Of a stretch of 64,000 nucleotides of DNA, positions 2,683 to 15,437 are shown one piece after another (the first letter of the stretch is position 1; every line of letters starts with the position of its first letter). The position numbers and the translations under genes are program-made. Location of the stretch: NCBI GenBank assembly GCA_965214095.1, contig OZ243938.1:4064001-4128000 (forward strand). The letters run 5' to 3'. The notes beneath the pieces were generated by a model. The model made no database searches, was not told the origin of the DNA, and saw only the letters and a list, made by a program, of their open reading frames with translations. This DNA comes from Candidatus Poribacteria bacterium. GTDB taxonomy: Bacteria > Poribacteria > WGA-4E > WGA-3G.

Positions 2683-3273
2683 TTACTGTGGTCTTTCGGC
2701 TTGTTGGATTATTTTCAGTTCATCTCTGAGCAATTGTCTTTTCAAGCCACTTATTCTGTCAATAAAGAGTGTGCCATTGAGATGGTCAATTTCGTGTTGC
2801 AGCACACGTGAGAGAAGTCCCGCTGCTTCAAATTGGATTTCTTTATTATTTATGCTCAATGCTTTAACGGCAATCTTCTCTGGACGTTTCACATCAGCAC
2901 GGACATCTGGTATGCTAAGACATCCTTCCTCCACCACTGTTTCGCCTTCTGCACTTAATATCTCTGGATTGAACAAAAGTAGTGGGTCAAATTTGTCTTC
3001 CTCATCATCCCCACCGATGTCAACTACGAGAAACCGCTTTAGTACGCCAACTTGGGTGGCTGCGAGACCGATACCGACACCAGTTGCGTATAGTGTCATC
3101 AACATATCCTCAGCGAGTTTGATTTCTGCTTCGGTTATTTCCTGAACAGGTGTTGCTCTTTTGCGGAGGACAGGATCACCATAATATCGAAGTTGTAACG
3201 GTTTCGTTTTAGGTAACTGTAGTGCTTCGTCTGCTGTATGTCTGTTTTTGCGTTTTCTTTTCGGCTTTGACAT
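2683..3273 (-). CDS. def: Peptide deformylase
   Basis: GIGLAATQVG, EGCLS and QHEIDHLNG motifs. Start moved to ATG 3273 because the ORF-track TTG at 3348 lies in a -35 box. Confidence 0.93.
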   Translation of the reverse strand: MSKPKRKRKNRHTADEALQLPKTKPLQLRYYGDPVLRKRATPVQEITEAEIKLAEDMLMTLYATGVGIGLAATQVGVLKRFLVVDIGGDDEEDKFDPLLLFNPEILSAEGETVVEEGCLSIPDVRADVKRPEKIAVKALSINNKEIQFEAAGLLSRVLQHEIDHLNGTLFIDRISGLKRQLLRDELKIIQQAERPQ

Positions 3274-3319
3274 ACGATGCGTATTACTCCATTCTTCTTT
3301 ATCTCTGACAAGTTTATAT

Positions 3320-3348
3320 ATCTTAACACTTGCGAGGGATATTGTCAA
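3320..3348 (-). promoter_or_regulatory. Sigma70-type promoter for def
   Basis: TTGACA-17 nt-TAAGAT with an extended TGn -10 on the minus strand. Confidence 0.6.
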
Positions 3349-3354
3349 GTGAAA

Positions 3355-3488
3355 ATGAAAGGAATTGACTGGTAATTCTCATTTTCTCAAACCCGGTAGG
3401 TGCGGTTTTCTAACCAAGTCAGCATACCTAACGCCTATGCTGACAGACTTCTCAAGGAAATTACCCAATTTATTTCTTAATCTTCATT
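3355..3488. repeat. Degenerate GTAG-type REP-like element with internal hairpin
   Basis: GGTAGGTGCGGTTTTCTAACC (3395-3415) resembles the 11170 and 18579 units; hairpin GTCAGCATA/TATGCTGAC (3418-3444); flanking GGTAATT/AATTACC and ATGAA/TTCAT. Confidence 0.5.
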
Positions 3489-3648
3489 ATGCTTGGGTCA
3501 AAAAACATTTGATTTATGAATTGTTTTGTGATGTACTATATTCAGCATTGTGGATAGGGTTGTCAAGGAAGCACAAGTCCTAACCTTTAGGTTGTGGGGT
3601 ACTATGACAAGATTCCCTTAATGTTCTTTAGTGTAAGGAATTCAGAAC

Positions 3649-4443
3649 ATGCGAAAATCAACATCATTATCAAAAATAATCGTAAAAGGCACTATCAACA
3701 GTTTCCTGTTGATAGTTTCTATGGCTTTTTTGATAGTTCCTACAGGCCAAGCATTAGATGGAGAAGTTGAAGAGATTCTAAAGCATATAGATCAACTCTA
3801 CCGAAGTGATACAAGCAATACAGAAATGGAGATGCAAATTGTCACACCAAATTGGGAACGGACACTGGCAATGACTGTGTGGACAAAAGGAACAGATAAG
3901 ACATTTATACGGATTACCGCACCGAAAAAGGAAAAGGATGTCACGACACTCAGAATCGGTAAAGAGATGTGGAATTATCTGCCGAAAGTCAACAAAATAT
4001 TCAAGATTTCACCATCAATGATGATGGGGTCGTGGATGGGATCCGATTTCACCAATGACGACCTTGTGAGAGAGTCGTCACTGATCAACGACTATACATA
4101 TCAACTGATTACGCCTGAAAATGCGTCCCCTGACCAAATTTACGTTGAGTTAACTCCCAAAGAAGACTCTCCTATTGTATGGGGAAAGGTAGTTACTGCA
4201 GTTAGGAAAGATGATCATATCCCTGTGTGGCAACATTTCTTTGATGAAAAAGACAGATTGATGAGAGTGCTAAATTTTAAAGATATAAAATCATTCGGTG
4301 AAAAGACTATACCTTCTGTGATGGAAATGATCCCGCAGAACAAAGAAGGACACAAAACGGTGATAAGATTTTTGAAGGCTGAATATGACTCTGAAATTGA
4401 TGATAAGATCTTCTCACGCAGAAATCTCCAGAAAAGGAAATAA
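3649..4443 (+). CDS. Outer membrane lipoprotein-sorting protein (LolA-like)
   Basis: Signal peptide; MWNYLP and SWMGSDFTNDDL motifs; FSRRNL C-terminus typical of this family. Confidence 0.85.
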   Translation: MRKSTSLSKIIVKGTINSFLLIVSMAFLIVPTGQALDGEVEEILKHIDQLYRSDTSNTEMEMQIVTPNWERTLAMTVWTKGTDKTFIRITAPKKEKDVTTLRIGKEMWNYLPKVNKIFKISPSMMMGSWMGSDFTNDDLVRESSLINDYTYQLITPENASPDQIYVELTPKEDSPIVWGKVVTAVRKDDHIPVWQHFFDEKDRLMRVLNFKDIKSFGEKTIPSVMEMIPQNKEGHKTVIRFLKAEYDSEIDDKIFSRRNLQKRK

Positions 4444-9161: not shown

Positions 9162-9863
9162 ATGGAAAATATACAGCAGACAGATGTCATTGTTACAGAA
9201 GAAATCACCAAGGTTTATGATCCAGATGGAATACCGATACATGCCCTAAACGGAATTAACCTTACGATTCAATCTGGTGAACTAACGGCAATTGTCGGTC
9301 CTTCCGGTTCTGGTAAAACAACATTTCTCAATATCATTTCTGGATTAGACACACCAACAGAAGGTAAGGTATGGCTTGCAGGAAATGTCTTGTCGGAGAT
9401 GAGTGGAAATGAACTATCTGATTATAGACGAGATAACATCGGATTCATATTTCAAGCATATAACCTTATACCCGTGCTCACAGTGAGAGAAAATGTTGAA
9501 TATATTATGCTCTTGGCAGGTGTTCCAAAAACTGAACGACATGAACGCGTGACTGCCATGCTTGAATCTGTCGGATTAGCAGGCGTGGAGGACAGACTTC
9601 CTACGAAACTTTCCGGTGGACAACAGCAACGGGTTGCAATTGCACGGGCAATGGTATCAGAACCATCTATAGTCCTCGCAGATGAACCCACCGCTAATCT
9701 TGACTCAAAAACAGGGGCAGACCTACTTGAGATGATGCGTAAACTTAACTCGGATACAGGAATGACATTTATATTCTCAACACATGATCCAATGGTAATG
9801 GAAAGTGCAAAAAGATTAATTACCCTACGCGATGGTAAAATTGACAGCGATGAGACAAAATAG
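9162..9863 (+). CDS. ABC transporter ATP-binding protein, LolD type
   Basis: Walker A GPSGSGKT, signature LSGGQQQR, Walker B VLADEPT, H-loop STHD. Confidence 0.93.
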   Translation: MENIQQTDVIVTEEITKVYDPDGIPIHALNGINLTIQSGELTAIVGPSGSGKTTFLNIISGLDTPTEGKVWLAGNVLSEMSGNELSDYRRDNIGFIFQAYNLIPVLTVRENVEYIMLLAGVPKTERHERVTAMLESVGLAGVEDRLPTKLSGGQQQRVAIARAMVSEPSIVLADEPTANLDSKTGADLLEMMRKLNSDTGMTFIFSTHDPMVMESAKRLITLRDGKIDSDETK

Positions 9864-11097
9864 TAATAAAAAACAGTTAAGAAATACCATCACGGTATTT
9901 ATCTGTCTCATGTCTGTTGCTTATGTCCAATTTGCTGTTGCTGAGTTCAGTTACGGTGGCTATTACAAAAACTTCTTTACCGCATTCAAGACACCACTTC
10001 CTGACCGTCCGCTGATGGGTGCTGCGGTTAATAGATTACGTCTAAACTTATCTTACAATCCTACTGACATAGTTTCCTTTGTTTTTGCTTATGATACTGC
10101 GCCGCGTGTTCAAGATCCTTCGCTTTTTTCTGAGTCCCCATTTGCAGTCGGTATCGCTTCTTCAAACTACCGCGCAATAGATTTTGAATCCTTGCTATAT
10201 CCAGATGCTGATAGTTCAATCGGTAGTGTAGGTATCTATCACAATCTTGATCGTGCATCAGTACAGATTAGTACCGATTTTGCCGACATATCCATCGGTA
10301 GAGATGCTGTTGCATGGGGGAGTGCGCGAGTAGTTAACCCAACTGATGTTGTTGCACCTTATACTCACGATCAATTGGACACAGAAGACCGAGTAGGTGT
10401 TGACGCACTACGTATTCGTATTCCAATCGGTATGTTGGGAGAAATAGATACAGGATACATCTTTGGAACAGATTTTGACTTTGACAAAAGTGTAATCTTT
10501 CTTAGAACACAGATGAACGCTGCCGAAACCGATTTCTCAATGCTATTAATGGAGCTTCAGAGAGATTTGCTGATTGGACTTGATGTCACCCGCGGTATAT
10601 TAGGTGCTGGATTCTGGTTGGAAACTGCTTATGTGATAACAAAAGCTTTTGTTGAGAAAGCAGATTCAGCGAATAACTATCTGCGAACTTCAGTGGGTTT
10701 AGATTATAGTTTCAATGGTGAAACATACACATTCATTGAGTATCACTACAACGGAGCAGGGATAGATAATCCTGATAACTATCTCACTAACATTGAGCAA
10801 TCTGCTTATACACGTGGGGGTGTTTATCTTTTAGGTGTTCACTATCTTGCTCCTGGGATTAACCATCAACTAACCCCACTGATTAGTCTCGGAGGACAAT
10901 TATTGATAAACCTAACAGACCCCTCCATCTGGCTTGCACCAAATGTAGCGTATAACATCGCAGAAGACATCCATCTCTCTGTAGGTGGATTGATAAGTTT
11001 TGGAAGAACACCGACAAACGAAGATTCAACCCAGTTCAAATCCGAATTTGGTAGCTACCCAAATCTTTTTTTTACATCAATTAGCGTCTATTATTGA
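9850..11097 (+). CDS. Putative outer-membrane beta-barrel protein
   Basis: Signal peptide (AVA-EF), aromatic-rich beta strands, terminal SVYY; last gene of the operon. Confidence 0.65.
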   Translation: MRQNSNKKQLRNTITVFICLMSVAYVQFAVAEFSYGGYYKNFFTAFKTPLPDRPLMGAAVNRLRLNLSYNPTDIVSFVFAYDTAPRVQDPSLFSESPFAVGIASSNYRAIDFESLLYPDADSSIGSVGIYHNLDRASVQISTDFADISIGRDAVAWGSARVVNPTDVVAPYTHDQLDTEDRVGVDALRIRIPIGMLGEIDTGYIFGTDFDFDKSVIFLRTQMNAAETDFSMLLMELQRDLLIGLDVTRGILGAGFWLETAYVITKAFVEKADSANNYLRTSVGLDYSFNGETYTFIEYHYNGAGIDNPDNYLTNIEQSAYTRGGVYLLGVHYLAPGINHQLTPLISLGGQLLINLTDPSIWLAPNVAYNIAEDIHLSVGGLISFGRTPTNEDSTQFKSEFGSYPNLFFTSISVYY

Positions 11098-11441: not shown

Positions 11442-12155
11442 ATGGACAATTGTTGCCACGAAAAAGCAGACGAACTTGAAGAACTCCGAGAGAAACAATC
11501 CAAAACCTTGTGGATTGTCCTTGCCATCAACGGTGTCATGTTCTGTGTAGAAATGGTTGTAGGTATACTGGCAGGTTCAGTTGCTCTGCAGGCTGATTCT
11601 CTTGATATGATGAGCGATACTTTGGTCTACGGATTCAGTCTATACGCAATTGGAAAAAGTTACCGTTGGCGTGCTGGGTCTGCCTTGCTCAAGGGTAGTA
11701 TTATGGCAATCTTTGGTGTAGGCGTGTTGATCCAAAGCTGCTATAAATTTCTCGCGGGTGGAATTCCTGAGTCTAACTTCATGTTTGCCATGAGTTTAAT
11801 CGCTCTGGCTGCAAATTTGAGTTGTCTGATATTATTGTCAAGGCACAAGTCAGATGATATAAATATGCGTTCAACTTGGATATGCTCGCGAAACGACATC
11901 ATTGCTAACTCAAGTGTATTTGTCGCTGCTGCTCTCGTTGCAATCACAAACTCAATGTTGCCAGATGTGATTGTAGGTCTATTAATTACAGGTATCTTTA
12001 TTAAGTCTGCTGTCTCAGTTTTAAGAGATTCGGTGAGAGAATTGCGTGAACCGGATACCCTCCCGACACAAGTATCTGTTGTTAAGTTTGAACCTGTAGA
12101 AGAACTGTGTAGTGCGGGAATATGTCCAGTAAACGCATGCCAGTGTCAGGCTTGA
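11442..12155 (+). CDS. Cation diffusion facilitator (CzcD-like) metal transporter with Cys-rich termini
   Basis: SVALQADSLDMMSD and NMRSTWICSRND metal-site motifs, about 6 TMs; MDNCCHE N-terminus; CSAGICPVNACQC C-terminus. Confidence 0.85.
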   Translation: MDNCCHEKADELEELREKQSKTLWIVLAINGVMFCVEMVVGILAGSVALQADSLDMMSDTLVYGFSLYAIGKSYRWRAGSALLKGSIMAIFGVGVLIQSCYKFLAGGIPESNFMFAMSLIALAANLSCLILLSRHKSDDINMRSTWICSRNDIIANSSVFVAAALVAITNSMLPDVIVGLLITGIFIKSAVSVLRDSVRELREPDTLPTQVSVVKFEPVEELCSAGICPVNACQCQA

Positions 12156-12158
12156 AAA

Positions 12159-13370
12159 CTATTCTGATACCAGACCTAAATCAGATGAAATTGCCTTATC
12201 CCAATCTGCTGTAAATTCCCACCAATTTGACATAACCCTATTCTCATACTTGATACCGTTGTTATGTCCAGGCATATTCTGCATCCAGTATATATACCAC
12301 TTAGACTCTATCAGTTGTTGTATCTTATCACGGTCTTTATCGGGAAATGCATACTTCAGTTTGCCATAAGTATCTACATTGACAAGTGTTTTCTTTCCGC
12401 TATTGTCTGGTGTCCAATCTTCAATATCACTTTCAACTAAGGTCATCGTTTCAGTATAGTCATAATGTTTGGTCGTATTCGGTGGCATGTGCGTCCATCC
12501 AGCACGACCAGTAATGAAGTTACCTTCTTTGTCTTGGCCAACAAATCTCTTCCAAAACAGGTCTGTATTACCAAATTGCAGTTGATTGACATGGCTCAAT
12601 ATCGCTTCCAATTGATGTCCATGATTGTGTACCGCTTCTGCATGACTTCTTCTGAAGTTTTGTCCATAAACTGTATATGTTGACTTATAGATGGGTAGAT
12701 CTGTGTTATCTCGATTACTATTGGAAATATCTCCTGTCAATGGACTTGACATGTTGGATTCCCACCAGTTTCTAAAATCCTCTGGTTTATGGATATTCGG
12801 GTCATAGCACGGAAAATCAGAGGTCACACCACCCATCCACATCCATATTTCCTTGACACCTAAATCGTTCACATAATGCTCAATGTTGAAACGTTCAAAT
12901 ATCTTATGGTAATCCGGGGAATACAGCGGCGTGCCATCGGCTAAATGCTGACTGACAGGACCCTTTGGAGTCTGCTCATAAACGGTTATATATTCCACAA
13001 CACGATAACCAATAGAAGGTACTGCTGTTGAGTTTTTATATCCTCTAAATCTGGTGCCTTCTTCAAGCATAAACTTAACCCGTTTATCAAATTGATCTAT
13101 CCTTGTTTTGAGTTCATCAAGGCTTATTTCACCTAAATCCCAAAAGTCCGGTGCTTTTGAAATATCCAGATTGATACCATCAGTAGTAGGCAGAAACCTC
13201 ATAATTACAACAGGTATTTCATTGAGATGTCCTGCTGCAGGAGTCGCTAAATATGGATCAATTTTCTCATAAACTGGCGATATTTCTTCTGCAAATACTT
13301 GTCTGGATTGCGTTAACATAACGATGAACACAACTCCTAATATAAGTGTTTTGATTTTATATATTGTCAT
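12159..13370 (-). CDS. Secreted hypothetical protein with His-rich (HNHGH) motif
   Basis: Long ORF with signal peptide (VFA-EE); start moved to 13370 because the upstream part overlaps a terminator. Confidence 0.7.
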   Translation of the reverse strand: MTIYKIKTLILGVVFIVMLTQSRQVFAEEISPVYEKIDPYLATPAAGHLNEIPVVIMRFLPTTDGINLDISKAPDFWDLGEISLDELKTRIDQFDKRVKFMLEEGTRFRGYKNSTAVPSIGYRVVEYITVYEQTPKGPVSQHLADGTPLYSPDYHKIFERFNIEHYVNDLGVKEIWMWMGGVTSDFPCYDPNIHKPEDFRNWWESNMSSPLTGDISNSNRDNTDLPIYKSTYTVYGQNFRRSHAEAVHNHGHQLEAILSHVNQLQFGNTDLFWKRFVGQDKEGNFITGRAGWTHMPPNTTKHYDYTETMTLVESDIEDWTPDNSGKKTLVNVDTYGKLKYAFPDKDRDKIQQLIESKWYIYWMQNMPGHNNGIKYENRVMSNWWEFTADWDKAISSDLGLVSE

Positions 13371-13377
13371 AAAACAT

Positions 13378-13413
13378 AAAAAGAAACCCCATGGCTGTGA
13401 GGCACATGAGGGT
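13378..13413 (-). terminator. Intrinsic terminator after the HMA genes
   Basis: Minus strand ACCCTCATG...CATGGGGT stem (one bulge) followed by TTCTTTTT. Confidence 0.55.
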
Positions 13414-13493
13414 ATTAAATTGTGTGTTTTACCACTTGGCATTGAGATAAATGGAGTTACATAATGACTCCGCTCAACACATTCAAATCTGAT

Positions 13494-13850
13494 TTATTCC
13501 TCAGCTGAAGCAATAACAGAAGCAGTAAAACGCGGCTTTCCATCCATTTCTTCTATTGCAGCAACAGCATCTGTTAATGCAGTAGTATCCACTTTACCTT
13601 TCTCAACCTTCACAACGGCTTTTTCATCAGCTTGTGAAACAGTCACGACTTCTGTGACACCTGCAACATCCTTAAGTGCAGACTGCACTTTGGAAACACA
13701 AGAGCCTCAAGCCAGACCTGTTACGGCTAAGCTGATTTCTTCAACAACAATGTCTGCAGTTTGATTTTCTGCTGTGTCTTCTTTCTGCTGATTTGCACAA
13801 CCAAAGGCAACAAGCATCAAAACCACGATAAAAAACGATTTCTTCAACAT
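13494..13850 (-). CDS. HMA-domain lipoprotein, predicted selenoprotein (GLA-U-GSC), 118 aa
   Basis: ATG 13850 with upstream GAGGA RBS; lipobox AFGC; in-frame TGA (13709-13707) at the first Cys of the GMxCxxC motif; frame continues into the HMA fold (VQSALKDVAGV); SECIS-like hairpin. Confidence 0.85.
13674..13690 (-). promoter_or_regulatory. Candidate bacterial SECIS hairpin
   Basis: AAGTGCA-GTC-TGCACTT, 16 nt after the UGA. Confidence 0.7.
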
Positions 13851-14013
13851 TTCTTATATGTCCTCATAATAAGATAGATTATAAACACAATTAAGGATAC
13901 TTATTAGGTTTATAATCTATCTCAATCAATTTGCCTCAATCATCTTATGACAATCAAGCAATATATGTAAAAAGTATCAGATGAAGGACGGTTTAACTCG
14001 TCCTACAAGACTA

Positions 14014-14400
14014 TTAATTGGCAATAGATGCGGTAAAGCGAGCATCGGCATCATCAATTGCTTTGATGATGGTATCGTTTGTAACTTTGCCCTTTTCCAC
14101 CTTAACGACGACCAATTTTGTTTCTCTGGAAACACTGATGATCTCTTCTACACCCGTGACCTTCTTTAGTGCAGACTGCACTATGGCGGGACACGAACCT
14201 CATGTCATGCCCTCCACCTGAAAAGTCACTTCCTGATACATAGGTTTTTCTGCTGTTTTTTCCGTGGTTTTTTCCATCGGTGTTTCACCAGCGGCCATTT
14301 CGGTCTCTTCAGCCATTTCTGCTTCTTGACCCATCATAGCACAACCTGTCAGGAGTGCAAAGGTAACGAGAGTAATCAGCGCAAATTTCGCGATATACAT
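14014..14400 (-). CDS. HMA-domain lipoprotein, predicted selenoprotein (GMT-U-GSC), 128 aa
   Basis: GGAGG RBS; lipobox LTGC; TGA (14202-14200) in VEGMT-U-GSCPAIVQSALKKVTGV; frame open to TAA at 14014; paralog of the 13494-13850 gene. Confidence 0.87.
14167..14183 (-). promoter_or_regulatory. Candidate bacterial SECIS hairpin
   Basis: TAGTGCA-GTC-TGCACTA, 16 nt after the UGA; closing pair covaries with the paralog's hairpin. Confidence 0.7.
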
Positions 14401-14521
14401 CGTTATACCTCCTTTGTTATTTACATAACTATGTTATCATATTGAAATATATATTGTCAAGTTAATTATTTGGAATATAGGGTGTTTCTGGTGAAGTATA
14501 AGAATAATTGGACACACCACC

Positions 14522-14638
14522 GTAGGAGCGATCTCAGAATCGCGACATAACACAGTGATAATCGGGAATCGGAGTTCCCTCCTACACATCCAAAATCTAA
14601 AAGAAAATAAACCGTTCGTAGTCGCGCAATTCATTGCG
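14522..14638. repeat. Cluster of GTAG-type REP-like palindromes
   Basis: GTAGGAGCGATCTCAGAATCGCGA (14522-14545) inverted to TCGGGAATCGGAGTTCCCTCCTAC (14562-14585); GTAGTCGCGCAATTCATTGCG (14618-14638). Confidence 0.7.
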
Positions 14639-14642
14639 ACTT

Positions 14643-15437
14643 TTACATTATCTGACTTAATGAGAGCAGTGAATTTTCAACTCTTTTTCTGTTGGAATGT
14701 TCTCTATGAGCATCAAGGAAGGGAAAGATTTTCTGAAGACGTAAAAGCTGCTTTTGAACAGCTGCAGCTCTTTCAAATTGCAGTAATGCCGAAGCCGAAT
14801 TTCGTTTAGCAACCAAATTCTCTTGAACTCTTAGATAGTTGCCATCAAGCAAATGGATGATATTCATTATCGTTTCACTATAGAGTTCTTGAGTGATGCG
14901 TGCAGCACAAGGCGCATAACATCGCTTCATATCATATTGTAGACAGGCACGGTATCCTTCTTGCGGTGTGATGCTACCTTGACAAGTGCGCACCATAAAG
15001 ATACGTTGCAACACATCAATTGCCTCATCCGTCCATCTTCGACTGGAAAGTGGCCCGAAGTATCTCGCTTCATCATTATAAATCTCAGGGACTCTCTCAA
15101 GAAGTGGAAAATCATCTGCAACATTGATGCGAATATACCAAGTCTGCGTGCCATACTTCAACGCAGAATTATAGGTGGGTTGGTGTTCTTTAATAAGACG
15201 CGATTCAAGAAACAGTGCTTCCTGTTCCGATTGACACACATGATAATCTACAGACGCTGTCCATCTGATTAATCGTTTGATCTTGGAACGACGTTTCTTA
15301 ACTTTATGCACATAAGAACGGACACGTTTACGTAGACATTTTGCTTTACCTATGTACAAGATCTTACCTGATGCACCATAGAAAAAGTAGACACCTGGAT
15401 CCATTGGGATGTCTTGGACCATATCTTTCGTTAGCAT
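14643..15437 (-). CDS. GIY-YIG nuclease with UVR domain (UvrC N-terminal half, Cho-like)
   Basis: PGVYFF...LYIGKAKCLRKRVRSY, ESRLIKEHQPTYN, Cys cluster CLQY...CYAPC, LQFERAA UVR motif; no C-terminal RNase H or HhH domains. Confidence 0.85.
   Translation of the reverse strand: MLTKDMVQDIPMDPGVYFFYGASGKILYIGKAKCLRKRVRSYVHKVKKRRSKIKRLIRWTASVDYHVCQSEQEALFLESRLIKEHQPTYNSALKYGTQTWYIRINVADDFPLLERVPEIYNDEARYFGPLSSRRWTDEAIDVLQRIFMVRTCQGSITPQEGYRACLQYDMKRCYAPCAARITQELYSETIMNIIHLLDGNYLRVQENLVAKRNSASALLQFERAAAVQKQLLRLQKIFPFLDAHREHSNRKRVENSLLSLSQIM

Follow-up and report, generated by a model that had tools for sequence, protein, structure and literature searches.

Organization of the gene pair

The present analysis deals with a tandem gene pair in a 64,000-nucleotide stretch of DNA from a Candidatus Poribacteria bacterium (assembly GCA_965214095.1, contig OZ243938.1, positions 4,064,001 to 4,128,000 of the forward strand). 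This whole stretch is called the window, and positions refer to it unless a genome prefix is given. Two open reading frames (ORFs) on its minus strand encode proteins of 128 (gene 1) and 118 amino acids (gene 2), provided that the single in-frame TGA codon in each of them is read through. Translation with table 11 splits gene 1 into products of 66 (14200..14400) and 55 amino acids (14014..14181) and gene 2 into products of 47 (13707..13850) and 64 amino acids (13494..13688), in line with an earlier note on this DNA, made from the sequence alone, which had stated that standard gene callers break both genes into fragments. In both genes the TGA replaces the first Cys of an HMA metal-binding motif, which reads GMT-U-GSC in gene 1 and GLA-U-GSC in gene 2 if the codon is taken as selenocysteine (Sec, U). 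The two proteins share 43% identity over 89 amino acids and are built alike, with a basic, hydrophobic signal followed by an acidic low-complexity linker and one HMA domain. The adjacent paralogs, their motifs, the lipoboxes LTGC and AFGC and both ribosome-binding sites (RBS) were found as that note had described them. The features of the locus are collected in Table 1.

Table 1. Features of the gene pair and its surroundings in the window.
Feature	Position	Strand	Basis or remark
Gene 1, predicted 128-aa HMA selenolipoprotein (signal, linker, HMA)	14014..14400	-	read-through ORF, TAA stop included
Gene 2, predicted 118-aa HMA selenolipoprotein, paralog of gene 1	13494..13850	-	read-through ORF, TAA stop included
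TGA codon of gene 1, very probably Sec67 (first ligand, G-M-T-U-G-S-C)	14200..14202	-	sequence
TGA codon of gene 2, very probably Sec48 (G-L-A-U-G-S-C)	13707..13709	-	sequence
SECIS-like hairpin of gene 1, UAGUGCA-GUC-UGCACUA; apical loop begins 24 nt after UGA	14167..14183	-
SECIS-like hairpin of gene 2, AAGUGCA-GUC-UGCACUU; register as in gene 1	13674..13690	-
HMA domain of gene 1, residues 55-126, beta-alpha-beta-beta-alpha-beta	14023..14238	-	AlphaFold model
HMA domain of gene 2, about residues 36-112 (Pfam match 41-101)	13515..13745	-	Pfam and alignment
Predicted lipoprotein signal of gene 1, residues 1-20, lipobox L-T-G-C, Cys20	14341..14400	-	pattern only
Predicted lipoprotein signal of gene 2, residues 1-18, lipobox A-F-G-C, Cys18	13797..13850	-	pattern; aligned with invariant Cys
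RBS-like AGGAGG, 7 nt before ATG of gene 1	14408..14413	-	sequence
RBS-like GAGGA of gene 2	13861-13865	-	sequence
Promoter-like TTGACA-18-TAACAT upstream of gene 1 (10/12, TG before second hexamer)	14431..14460	-	consensus scan only
Structured intergenic spacer	13851..14013	-	minimum free energy -43.6 kcal/mol, z -4.93
Terminator-like stem and T run downstream of gene 2	13386..13403	-	consensus scan only
Downstream gene, secreted 427-aa protein (~375-aa domain)	12159..13442	-	no Pfam or NCBIfam family

Conservation of the TGA codon and selection behind it

The gene pair is not an isolated case. Matches were obtained in each of the 41 related genomes examined first and in 113 of 121 genomes of a phylum sample, including 112 of the 112 other genomes from the four families of the order, while none of the eight genomes outside the order matched with this query. 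Within the genus, 32 genomes were covered, the one studied here (G000) among them; the top full-length match from each contains exactly one TGA, at identities of 61-99%. At the motif column, 167 distinct HMA domains (loci L021-L140) have TGA in 149, TGC in 12 and TGT in 6 cases; no other codon occurs, and TGG never does. Since 149 distinct related domains show TGA in this very column, the pattern in the window is not a matter of chance. The alternation between Sec and Cys thus falls exactly on this column, and no Trp or Gly codon is found there in the DNA. One of the Cys forms (GMTCGVC) is the ortholog of gene 2 in a congener, and three changes are required to explain the Cys state on a tree with 55 members, at least two of them forced by well-supported branches. 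The motif varies among relatives (UGGC, UASC, USAC and UGNC), and G64, position 67 (U or C) and C70 are invariant in 34 members. Eight loci from outside the Poribacteria came from a search with code-11 word patterns, which could not seed on TGA; the four domains recovered from them by the motif script were all Cys forms (L133, L135 and L136 among the matches listed).

The frame behind the TGA codon is under purifying selection, as judged from the substitution pattern of aligned relatives. Behind the TGA, gene 1 has a median dN/dS ratio (nonsynonymous to synonymous substitution rates) of 0.17, computed over 54 pairs of the 11 equal-length distinct sequences among 20; for gene 2 the value is 0.33, with 21 pairs and 7 of 17 sequences. 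The earlier argument that the kept TGA speaks against nonsense mutation has gained weight, since the codon is retained in 113 genomes and dN/dS behind it is low.

Among 5.8 billion protein clusters only six relatives of 70-224 amino acids were found. Three of them read Trp at the site, two stop at ...VEGMT, and the remaining one departs from the frame ahead of this position. The Trp forms are the full-length public entries P0003, P0004 and P0005 (GMTWGSC, GMTWGAC), which lie on contigs of 1.3-1.7 kb. Presumably, they result from a gene call under a code in which TGA means Trp and could be mistaken for evidence of recoding.

These public sequences bear on two alternative explanations. The three W entries could indicate that TGA has been reassigned to Trp or Gly, or else the genes could be pseudogenes with nonsense mutations. 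However, the entries show the residue that a code-4 gene call would give on such short contigs, TGG is missing from the column in the DNA, and TGA terminates 8 of the 47 ORFs of at least 200 amino acids in the window as well as six Sec genes of the family in relatives. Together with the kept codon and the selection on the frame behind it, this makes reassignment or decay extremely unlikely. Alternatively, the UGA might mainly act as a stop, such that lipopeptides of 66 and 47 amino acids are made and occasional read-through serves a selenium-dependent regulation. Sec decoding competes with termination in all bacteria, and public gene calls do end at ...VEGMT, but the part after the UGA is selected, it completes the HMA fold, which would be impossible for a truncated product, and Cys-codon versions of the same genes exist that must be read through. 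Hence, the stop codon explanation is regarded as very unlikely.

The TGA codons are also retained in RNA libraries. Logan contigs from RNA libraries of three studies cover positions 13484-14402, that is both genes, with the flanking bins uncovered; they start near 14402, and one contig of 802 nucleotides (X1) includes gene 2 as well as the spacer and extends over most of gene 1. The contigs differ from the window at many third codon positions, and neither TGA is altered among the differences listed, six further ones existing besides. The earlier note had named TGC or TGT in sequencing reads as a result that would contradict its proposal, and the differences listed for these contigs include none of this kind at the two codons.

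Selenocysteine machinery and a SECIS-like hairpin

The genome, which is 5.25 Mb in size and 94.5% complete, holds the machinery for Sec synthesis and insertion on which the proposal of the earlier note depended. The tRNA-Sec gene scores 78.1 bits against a cut-off of 47 and is called tRNA-SeC with the anticodon tca by ARAGORN. The genes selA (616 bits), selB (355 bits) and selD (361 bits) are present as well, selB ending about 150 nucleotides before the tRNA-Sec gene, and all four components score above their curated cut-offs. The selD gene carries one TGA itself: SelD (G000:C1:1272212-1273138, L019) is a selenoprotein with the motif ...KCAG-U-ASK...

Both genes of the pair show the sequence AGUGCAG-UC-UGCACU starting 20 nucleotides after the UGA, which can fold into a hairpin resembling a bacterial Sec insertion sequence (SECIS) and codes for V-Q-x-A-L of helix 1. 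In gene 1 a possible lower stem would reach 14153-14197. When 47 distinct Sec forms are aligned without gaps, neither the GUGC/GCAC stem nor the first loop base, G27, varies. At the pair that closes the loop (columns 26-30), 40 of these forms have A-U, 4 have G-C and 2 have G-U, and one is unpaired there; the next outer pair is AU in 17, UA in 6, CG in 5, GU in 3 and UG in one, and unpaired in 15. The 18 third-codon positions within the 54 aligned columns are invariant only at the TGA and at columns 24, 27 and 33, which belong to the hairpin. A strict hairpin pattern at +21 occurs in 124 of 138 Sec domains vs. none of seven Cys domains, which use other Val or Ala codons or have a broken stem. 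The usual spacing between UGA and SECIS loop in bacteria is 16-37 nucleotides, and here the apical loop follows after 23 nucleotides. The description of the bacterial SECIS as a stem-loop that lies shortly downstream of the UGA and has an apical loop that is small and includes a G, is taken from the accessible part of a published account (PMC1088965). As a single, anecdotal parallel, the selD gene of the same genome has a GUGA/UCAC stem, the loop of which also begins G27-U28 after its UGA. Hence, a conserved SECIS-like hairpin, as expected by the earlier note, is found downstream of the UGA in both genes. Given these observations, the TGA codons very probably specify Sec.

Fold and export signal

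The part behind the TGA belongs to the same domain as the part in front of it. The Pfam HMA model PF00403 (gathering cut-off 24.8 bits; proteins scored with C in place of U) matches gene 1 with 40.8 bits (E 3e-10) and gene 2 with 29.9 bits (E 7.5e-7), and the match runs across the TGA in both proteins. An AlphaFold2 model of gene 1, built with a 34-row alignment, has block-mean values of the predicted local distance difference test (pLDDT) of at least 93 from residue 61 on and of 84 at residues 51-60; the linker (residues 21-49) is disordered, with pLDDT below 50. The model consists of strands at 55-63, 84-91, 96-102 and 123-126 and helices at 70-79 and 108-118. Foldseek places the mercury-binding protein MerP first (1osd_A, E 4.7e-7, 36% identity, TM 0.93 on the target), followed by the metal-binding domains of ATP7A/B, CopZ, ZntA and Atx1. 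There are 49 PDB matches at E up to 0.001, and all are HMA domains among the matches listed.

Export as a lipoprotein is predicted from the N-terminus. All 34 aligned members have the lipobox Cys, and at least 90% of them also have the Gly in front of it (Gly19). The general lipobox pattern is [LVI][ASTVI][GAS]-C, to which gene 2, with Ala at -3 and Phe at -2, conforms loosely. Taken together, the invariant lipobox Cys, the AlphaFold model and the MerP-like structure matches agree with the lipoprotein signal and the HMA fold that the earlier note had recognized.

Proposed function and alternative explanations

On this basis, it can be stated with high confidence that both genes encode Sec-containing HMA lipoproteins. 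According to the explanation that we favour, they are intact Sec genes for exported, lipidated HMA proteins that bind soft metals, and as a whole it is given a probability of about 0.85. A role in extracytoplasmic binding or transfer of soft metals appears reasonably probable. Such binding outside the cytoplasm is deduced from the fold and the motif, and lipidation and metal binding are likewise predictions, as is any statement on which metal is bound and which partner is served. The mechanism might be as follows. A SelB-dependent hairpin within the coding sequence, made of the V-Q-x-A-L codons of helix 1, would recode the single UGA as Sec. The product would be exported and then cleaved and lipidated at the lipobox Cys, and a disordered acidic linker of roughly 20-35 residues would act as the membrane tether. 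The C-terminal, ferredoxin-like HMA domain would present the metal loop G-M/L-x-Sec-x-x-Cys, the selenolate/thiolate pair of which is most likely the binding site of a soft metal, Cu(I) or else Hg(II), Cd(II) or Zn(II). The metal could be buffered or transferred through ligand exchange, for which MerP, CopZ and Atx1 use a pair of cysteines. Sec has a lower pKa and a higher nucleophilicity than Cys and would suit the exposed first ligand, where it is placed here, in an oxidising compartment.

Several points weigh against this explanation. Sec insertion itself is deduced from the nucleotide sequence. The hairpin overlaps conserved residues, and therefore part of its conservation reflects protein constraint. 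Its stability is unremarkable (z -1.49 and -1.52, with 14 and 18 of 200 shuffles folding at least as well), conservation of the proposed outer stem is poor (63.8% of cells paired), and 14 of the 138 Sec forms miss the strict pattern, mostly by one mismatch at the loop-closing pair. A search of positions 13300-14700 against Rfam at E up to 1 returned only chance-level matches to mir-17 and RybB. With regard to the RNA libraries, contamination with DNA is possible, and the contigs do not prove a single transcript. No neighbours related to metal homeostasis are conserved among 79 related loci, a CDF-family transporter adjoining the pair only in the four closest of them. MerT was not found in the 94.5% complete genome, the best MerA-like match (383 bits) stays below its cut-off of 454, and the equivalog models for MerP, CopZ and UxxU proteins all score below their cut-offs. 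With no mer or cop partner in the vicinity and no MerT found in the genome, the term metallochaperone and the choice of metal remain suppositions; from the 'seleno-metallochaperone' of the earlier note, the Sec-containing HMA lipoprotein has found support, while the chaperone role and the metal are still to be seen as tentative.

The structural similarity to MerP raises the question whether the pair could represent MerP-type Hg(II) scavengers that feed a mercury-resistance system. MerP is the best PDB match, with 1afi appearing besides 1osd_A, the MerP model TIGR02052 is the second-best NCBIfam match of gene 1, and a Gram-positive MerP model aligns from the signal region onwards. However, the scores of 49 and 30.8 bits for genes 1 and 2 lie far below the TIGR02052 cut-off of 92.55, no mer gene is found in the neighbourhood, and neither MerT nor a MerA-like match above cut-off was found in the genome. 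Hence, a dedicated function in mercury resistance is considered quite unlikely.

It might also be that the selenoproteins are real and that U-x-x-C forms a periplasmic redox centre, acting by selenylsulfide formation or selenol-thiol exchange, and not a metal ligand. In the accessible parts of the selenoprotein reviews, most of the bacterial UxxC selenoproteins listed are thiol oxidoreductases (PMC9312934, PMC13188914). Furthermore, a third Sec-HMA domain of the genome, described below, adjoins a CxxCH haem-binding (redox) module, and MerP can form an oxidised disulfide, the top structural match 1osd being annotated as 'oxidized MerP'. On the other hand, the fold is that of HMA and not thioredoxin-like, the G-M-T-x-x-x-C loop is a metal-binding signature, and all top structural neighbours bind metal. 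The UGSC-containing, thioredoxin-like (Trx-like) family NF041046 gave no match at E up to 0.1 for either protein despite the letters U-G-S-C. A redox function is therefore judged unlikely, and metal binding by the selenolate/thiolate pair is retained as the preferred interpretation.

Comparison with known systems

The selenoproteins closest to the pair in the accessible parts of two reviews are an E1-E2 cation-transporting P-type ATPase, which is listed with a UxxC motif and the example ABB15669.1, the family NF041115 and a putative mercuric transport protein (PMC9312934, PMC13188914). As far as can be judged from these descriptions, the ATPase, like the pair, combines a metal-handling family with the U-x-x-C pattern. 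P1B-type ATPases bear N-terminal HMA domains, as does a Cys form of 743 amino acids in the present genome, and if the Sec of the listed ATPase sits in such a domain, it would be the closest published precedent. It is, however, a large transporter facing the cytoplasm, compared here by a description in which the Sec domain is unstated, whereas the pair consists of stand-alone HMA domains behind a lipoprotein signal, outside the cytoplasm and encoded by tandem genes.

NF041115 (UxxU_metal_bind), a small HMA-like metal-binding selenoprotein family listed as putative mercuric reductase in the accessible part of one review (PMC13188914), is the best NCBIfam match of gene 1 and the second-best of gene 2. 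The scores of 51.3 and 39.2 bits remain below the cut-off of 95, the pair has UxxC and not UxxU, and the 74-position model covers the domain only, without signal and linker. MerP (TIGR02052; 1osd, 1afi) is likewise an exported single HMA domain with a G-M-T-C-x-x-C loop and the closest solved structure, but it has Cys and not Sec; it is a soluble periplasmic protein encoded in the mer operon. CopZ and Atx1 share the fold and the loop with the pair and probably the same ligand-exchange chemistry. However, they are cytosolic Cys-Cys proteins that pass copper to a P-type ATPase, whereas the pair is predicted to be exported and lipid-anchored, and the CopZ models NF033795 and NF047957 (cut-offs 91 and 85) give 45 and 48 bits with gene 1 and 32.8 and 44.4 bits with gene 2. 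The MerT/CopZ fusion-like selenoprotein family NF045683 reaches 38 and 24 bits vs. 375, over the C-terminal HMA part of the model only. A precedent for a bacterial lipoprotein with Sec is provided by the Rcas_1661 family of thioredoxin-like (seleno)lipoproteins (NF041057), which matches weakly (E 0.067) and only to the signal and linker region; it has a thioredoxin-like fold and a redox function, and the HMA domain is unrelated to it. The GOS 'MerP' selenoprotein was also considered as a precedent and rejected: in the part of the source that was available it is a read fragment of 33 residues without visible likeness to the pair.

Novelty and annotation gap

While Sec replacing Cys in HMA-type metal sites is already known, the lipoprotein family described here is new and unannotated. 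No description of a lipoprotein-HMA selenoprotein family was found in the accessible parts of the literature, including the selenoprotein reviews and a prediction paper; in the part available of a 2026 review, none of the terms lipoprotein, HMA, PF00403, periplasm and Poribacteria is used. In a literature search, a single paper joined Poribacteria with selenocysteine and selenoprotein, and judged by its listing it concerns hydrogenases. The architecture, which the earlier note had called uncommon, is so in the lists of the literature but not in the order, where the 112 other sampled genomes all contain it.

Conserved throughout the order, the family would join the short list of selenoproteins in which Sec serves as a metal ligand and not as a redox catalyst, and such a site would here be lipid-anchored and extracytoplasmic. 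In addition, it offers a natural series of Sec and Cys forms (149 vs. 18 domains, with at least two to three switches), in which the benefit of selenium at an HMA site could be addressed. The annotation error is systematic, and therefore the use of metals and selenium by these sponge symbionts is under-counted.

Neighbouring genes and further HMA domains

The intergenic spacer between the two genes is strongly structured, and none of 200 shuffled sequences was as stable. It contains a perfect inverted repeat of 16-17 bp (13871-13923), which ends 5 nucleotides before the RBS of gene 2 and gave no match in Rfam. Upstream of the pair, a UvrC-like GIY-YIG gene is found in 64 of the 79 loci. A PhyH gene is a conserved neighbour in 64 of them as well, and both look like plain synteny.

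The gene downstream of the pair follows it in 25 of the 79 loci. Its true start is probably Met25 (13370), in front of a hydrophobic signal, the listed start at 13442 being too early. At E up to 0.001, 1069 representatives of its domain were obtained, which reside mostly within large secreted proteins together with Laminin_G_3, Big_2, BACON and Por_Secre_tail domains, and the residues H276, Q277, E279 and H318 are invariant. The structural model (pLDDT 90.7) shows a middling similarity to metzincin metalloproteases (VIA Z 5-6.8, Foldseek E 0.007 and worse). In two different assemblies (L084; L085/L036) gene 2 is fused in frame to this domain. It is possible that the HMA lipoproteins supply or guard the metal of these metzincin-like enzymes.

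Convergent with the downstream gene, the CDF-family cation efflux transporter mentioned above is encoded at 11442-12155 on the plus strand; it has Cys-rich ends, MDNCCH... and ...CSAGICPVNACQCQA. Further away (9832-11097, plus strand), a protein of 421 amino acids has a signal-like N-terminus and an aromatic C-terminal end, ...SISVYY. It matches no Pfam or NCBIfam family and may be an outer-membrane barrel.

A third Sec-HMA domain with the motif GMT-U-SAC lies elsewhere in the same genome (G000:C1:648574-648747; L143 1477..3168, minus strand). It has the same hairpin in the same register and forms the C-terminus of a secreted protein of about 530 amino acids that also carries WD40 repeats and, as a haem-binding motif, CxxCH. 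About a dozen relatives have frames of 535-571 amino acids with an HMA match and one TGA. Furthermore, some Poribacteria genomes encode tandem HMA repeat proteins with a period of 73 amino acids (L114, minus strand, 1926-2802; L118, plus strand, 3142-4033; G073:C1:39348-40403; G062:C44:316696-317595; G088:C1:1192431-1193318). Several of the repeat units carry Sec; the locus L114, which is situated on a short contig, shows three consecutive U units and one Cys unit. Such repeat proteins would hold multiple Sec residues.

A broader idea, which we put forward only tentatively and consider rather doubtful at present, is that selenium-dependent extracytoplasmic metal handling in this order is built on a portable Sec-HMA module, with the lipoproteins serving secreted metalloenzymes and not detoxification. 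The codons of HMA helix 1 would then double as the module's own SECIS, and the module, with its hairpin in an unchanged register, would occur in four settings, namely the two lipoproteins, the CxxCH/WD40 protein, the repeat proteins with at least three Sec-HMA units and the fusion to the metzincin-like domain. The lipoproteins might provide such enzymes with their metal, protect it, or serve them as a selenolate 'switch' ligand. Finally, the 743-amino-acid ORF with the Cys form of the HMA domain (L141) may be a CopA-like protein, which is a guess from its size and its HMA match.

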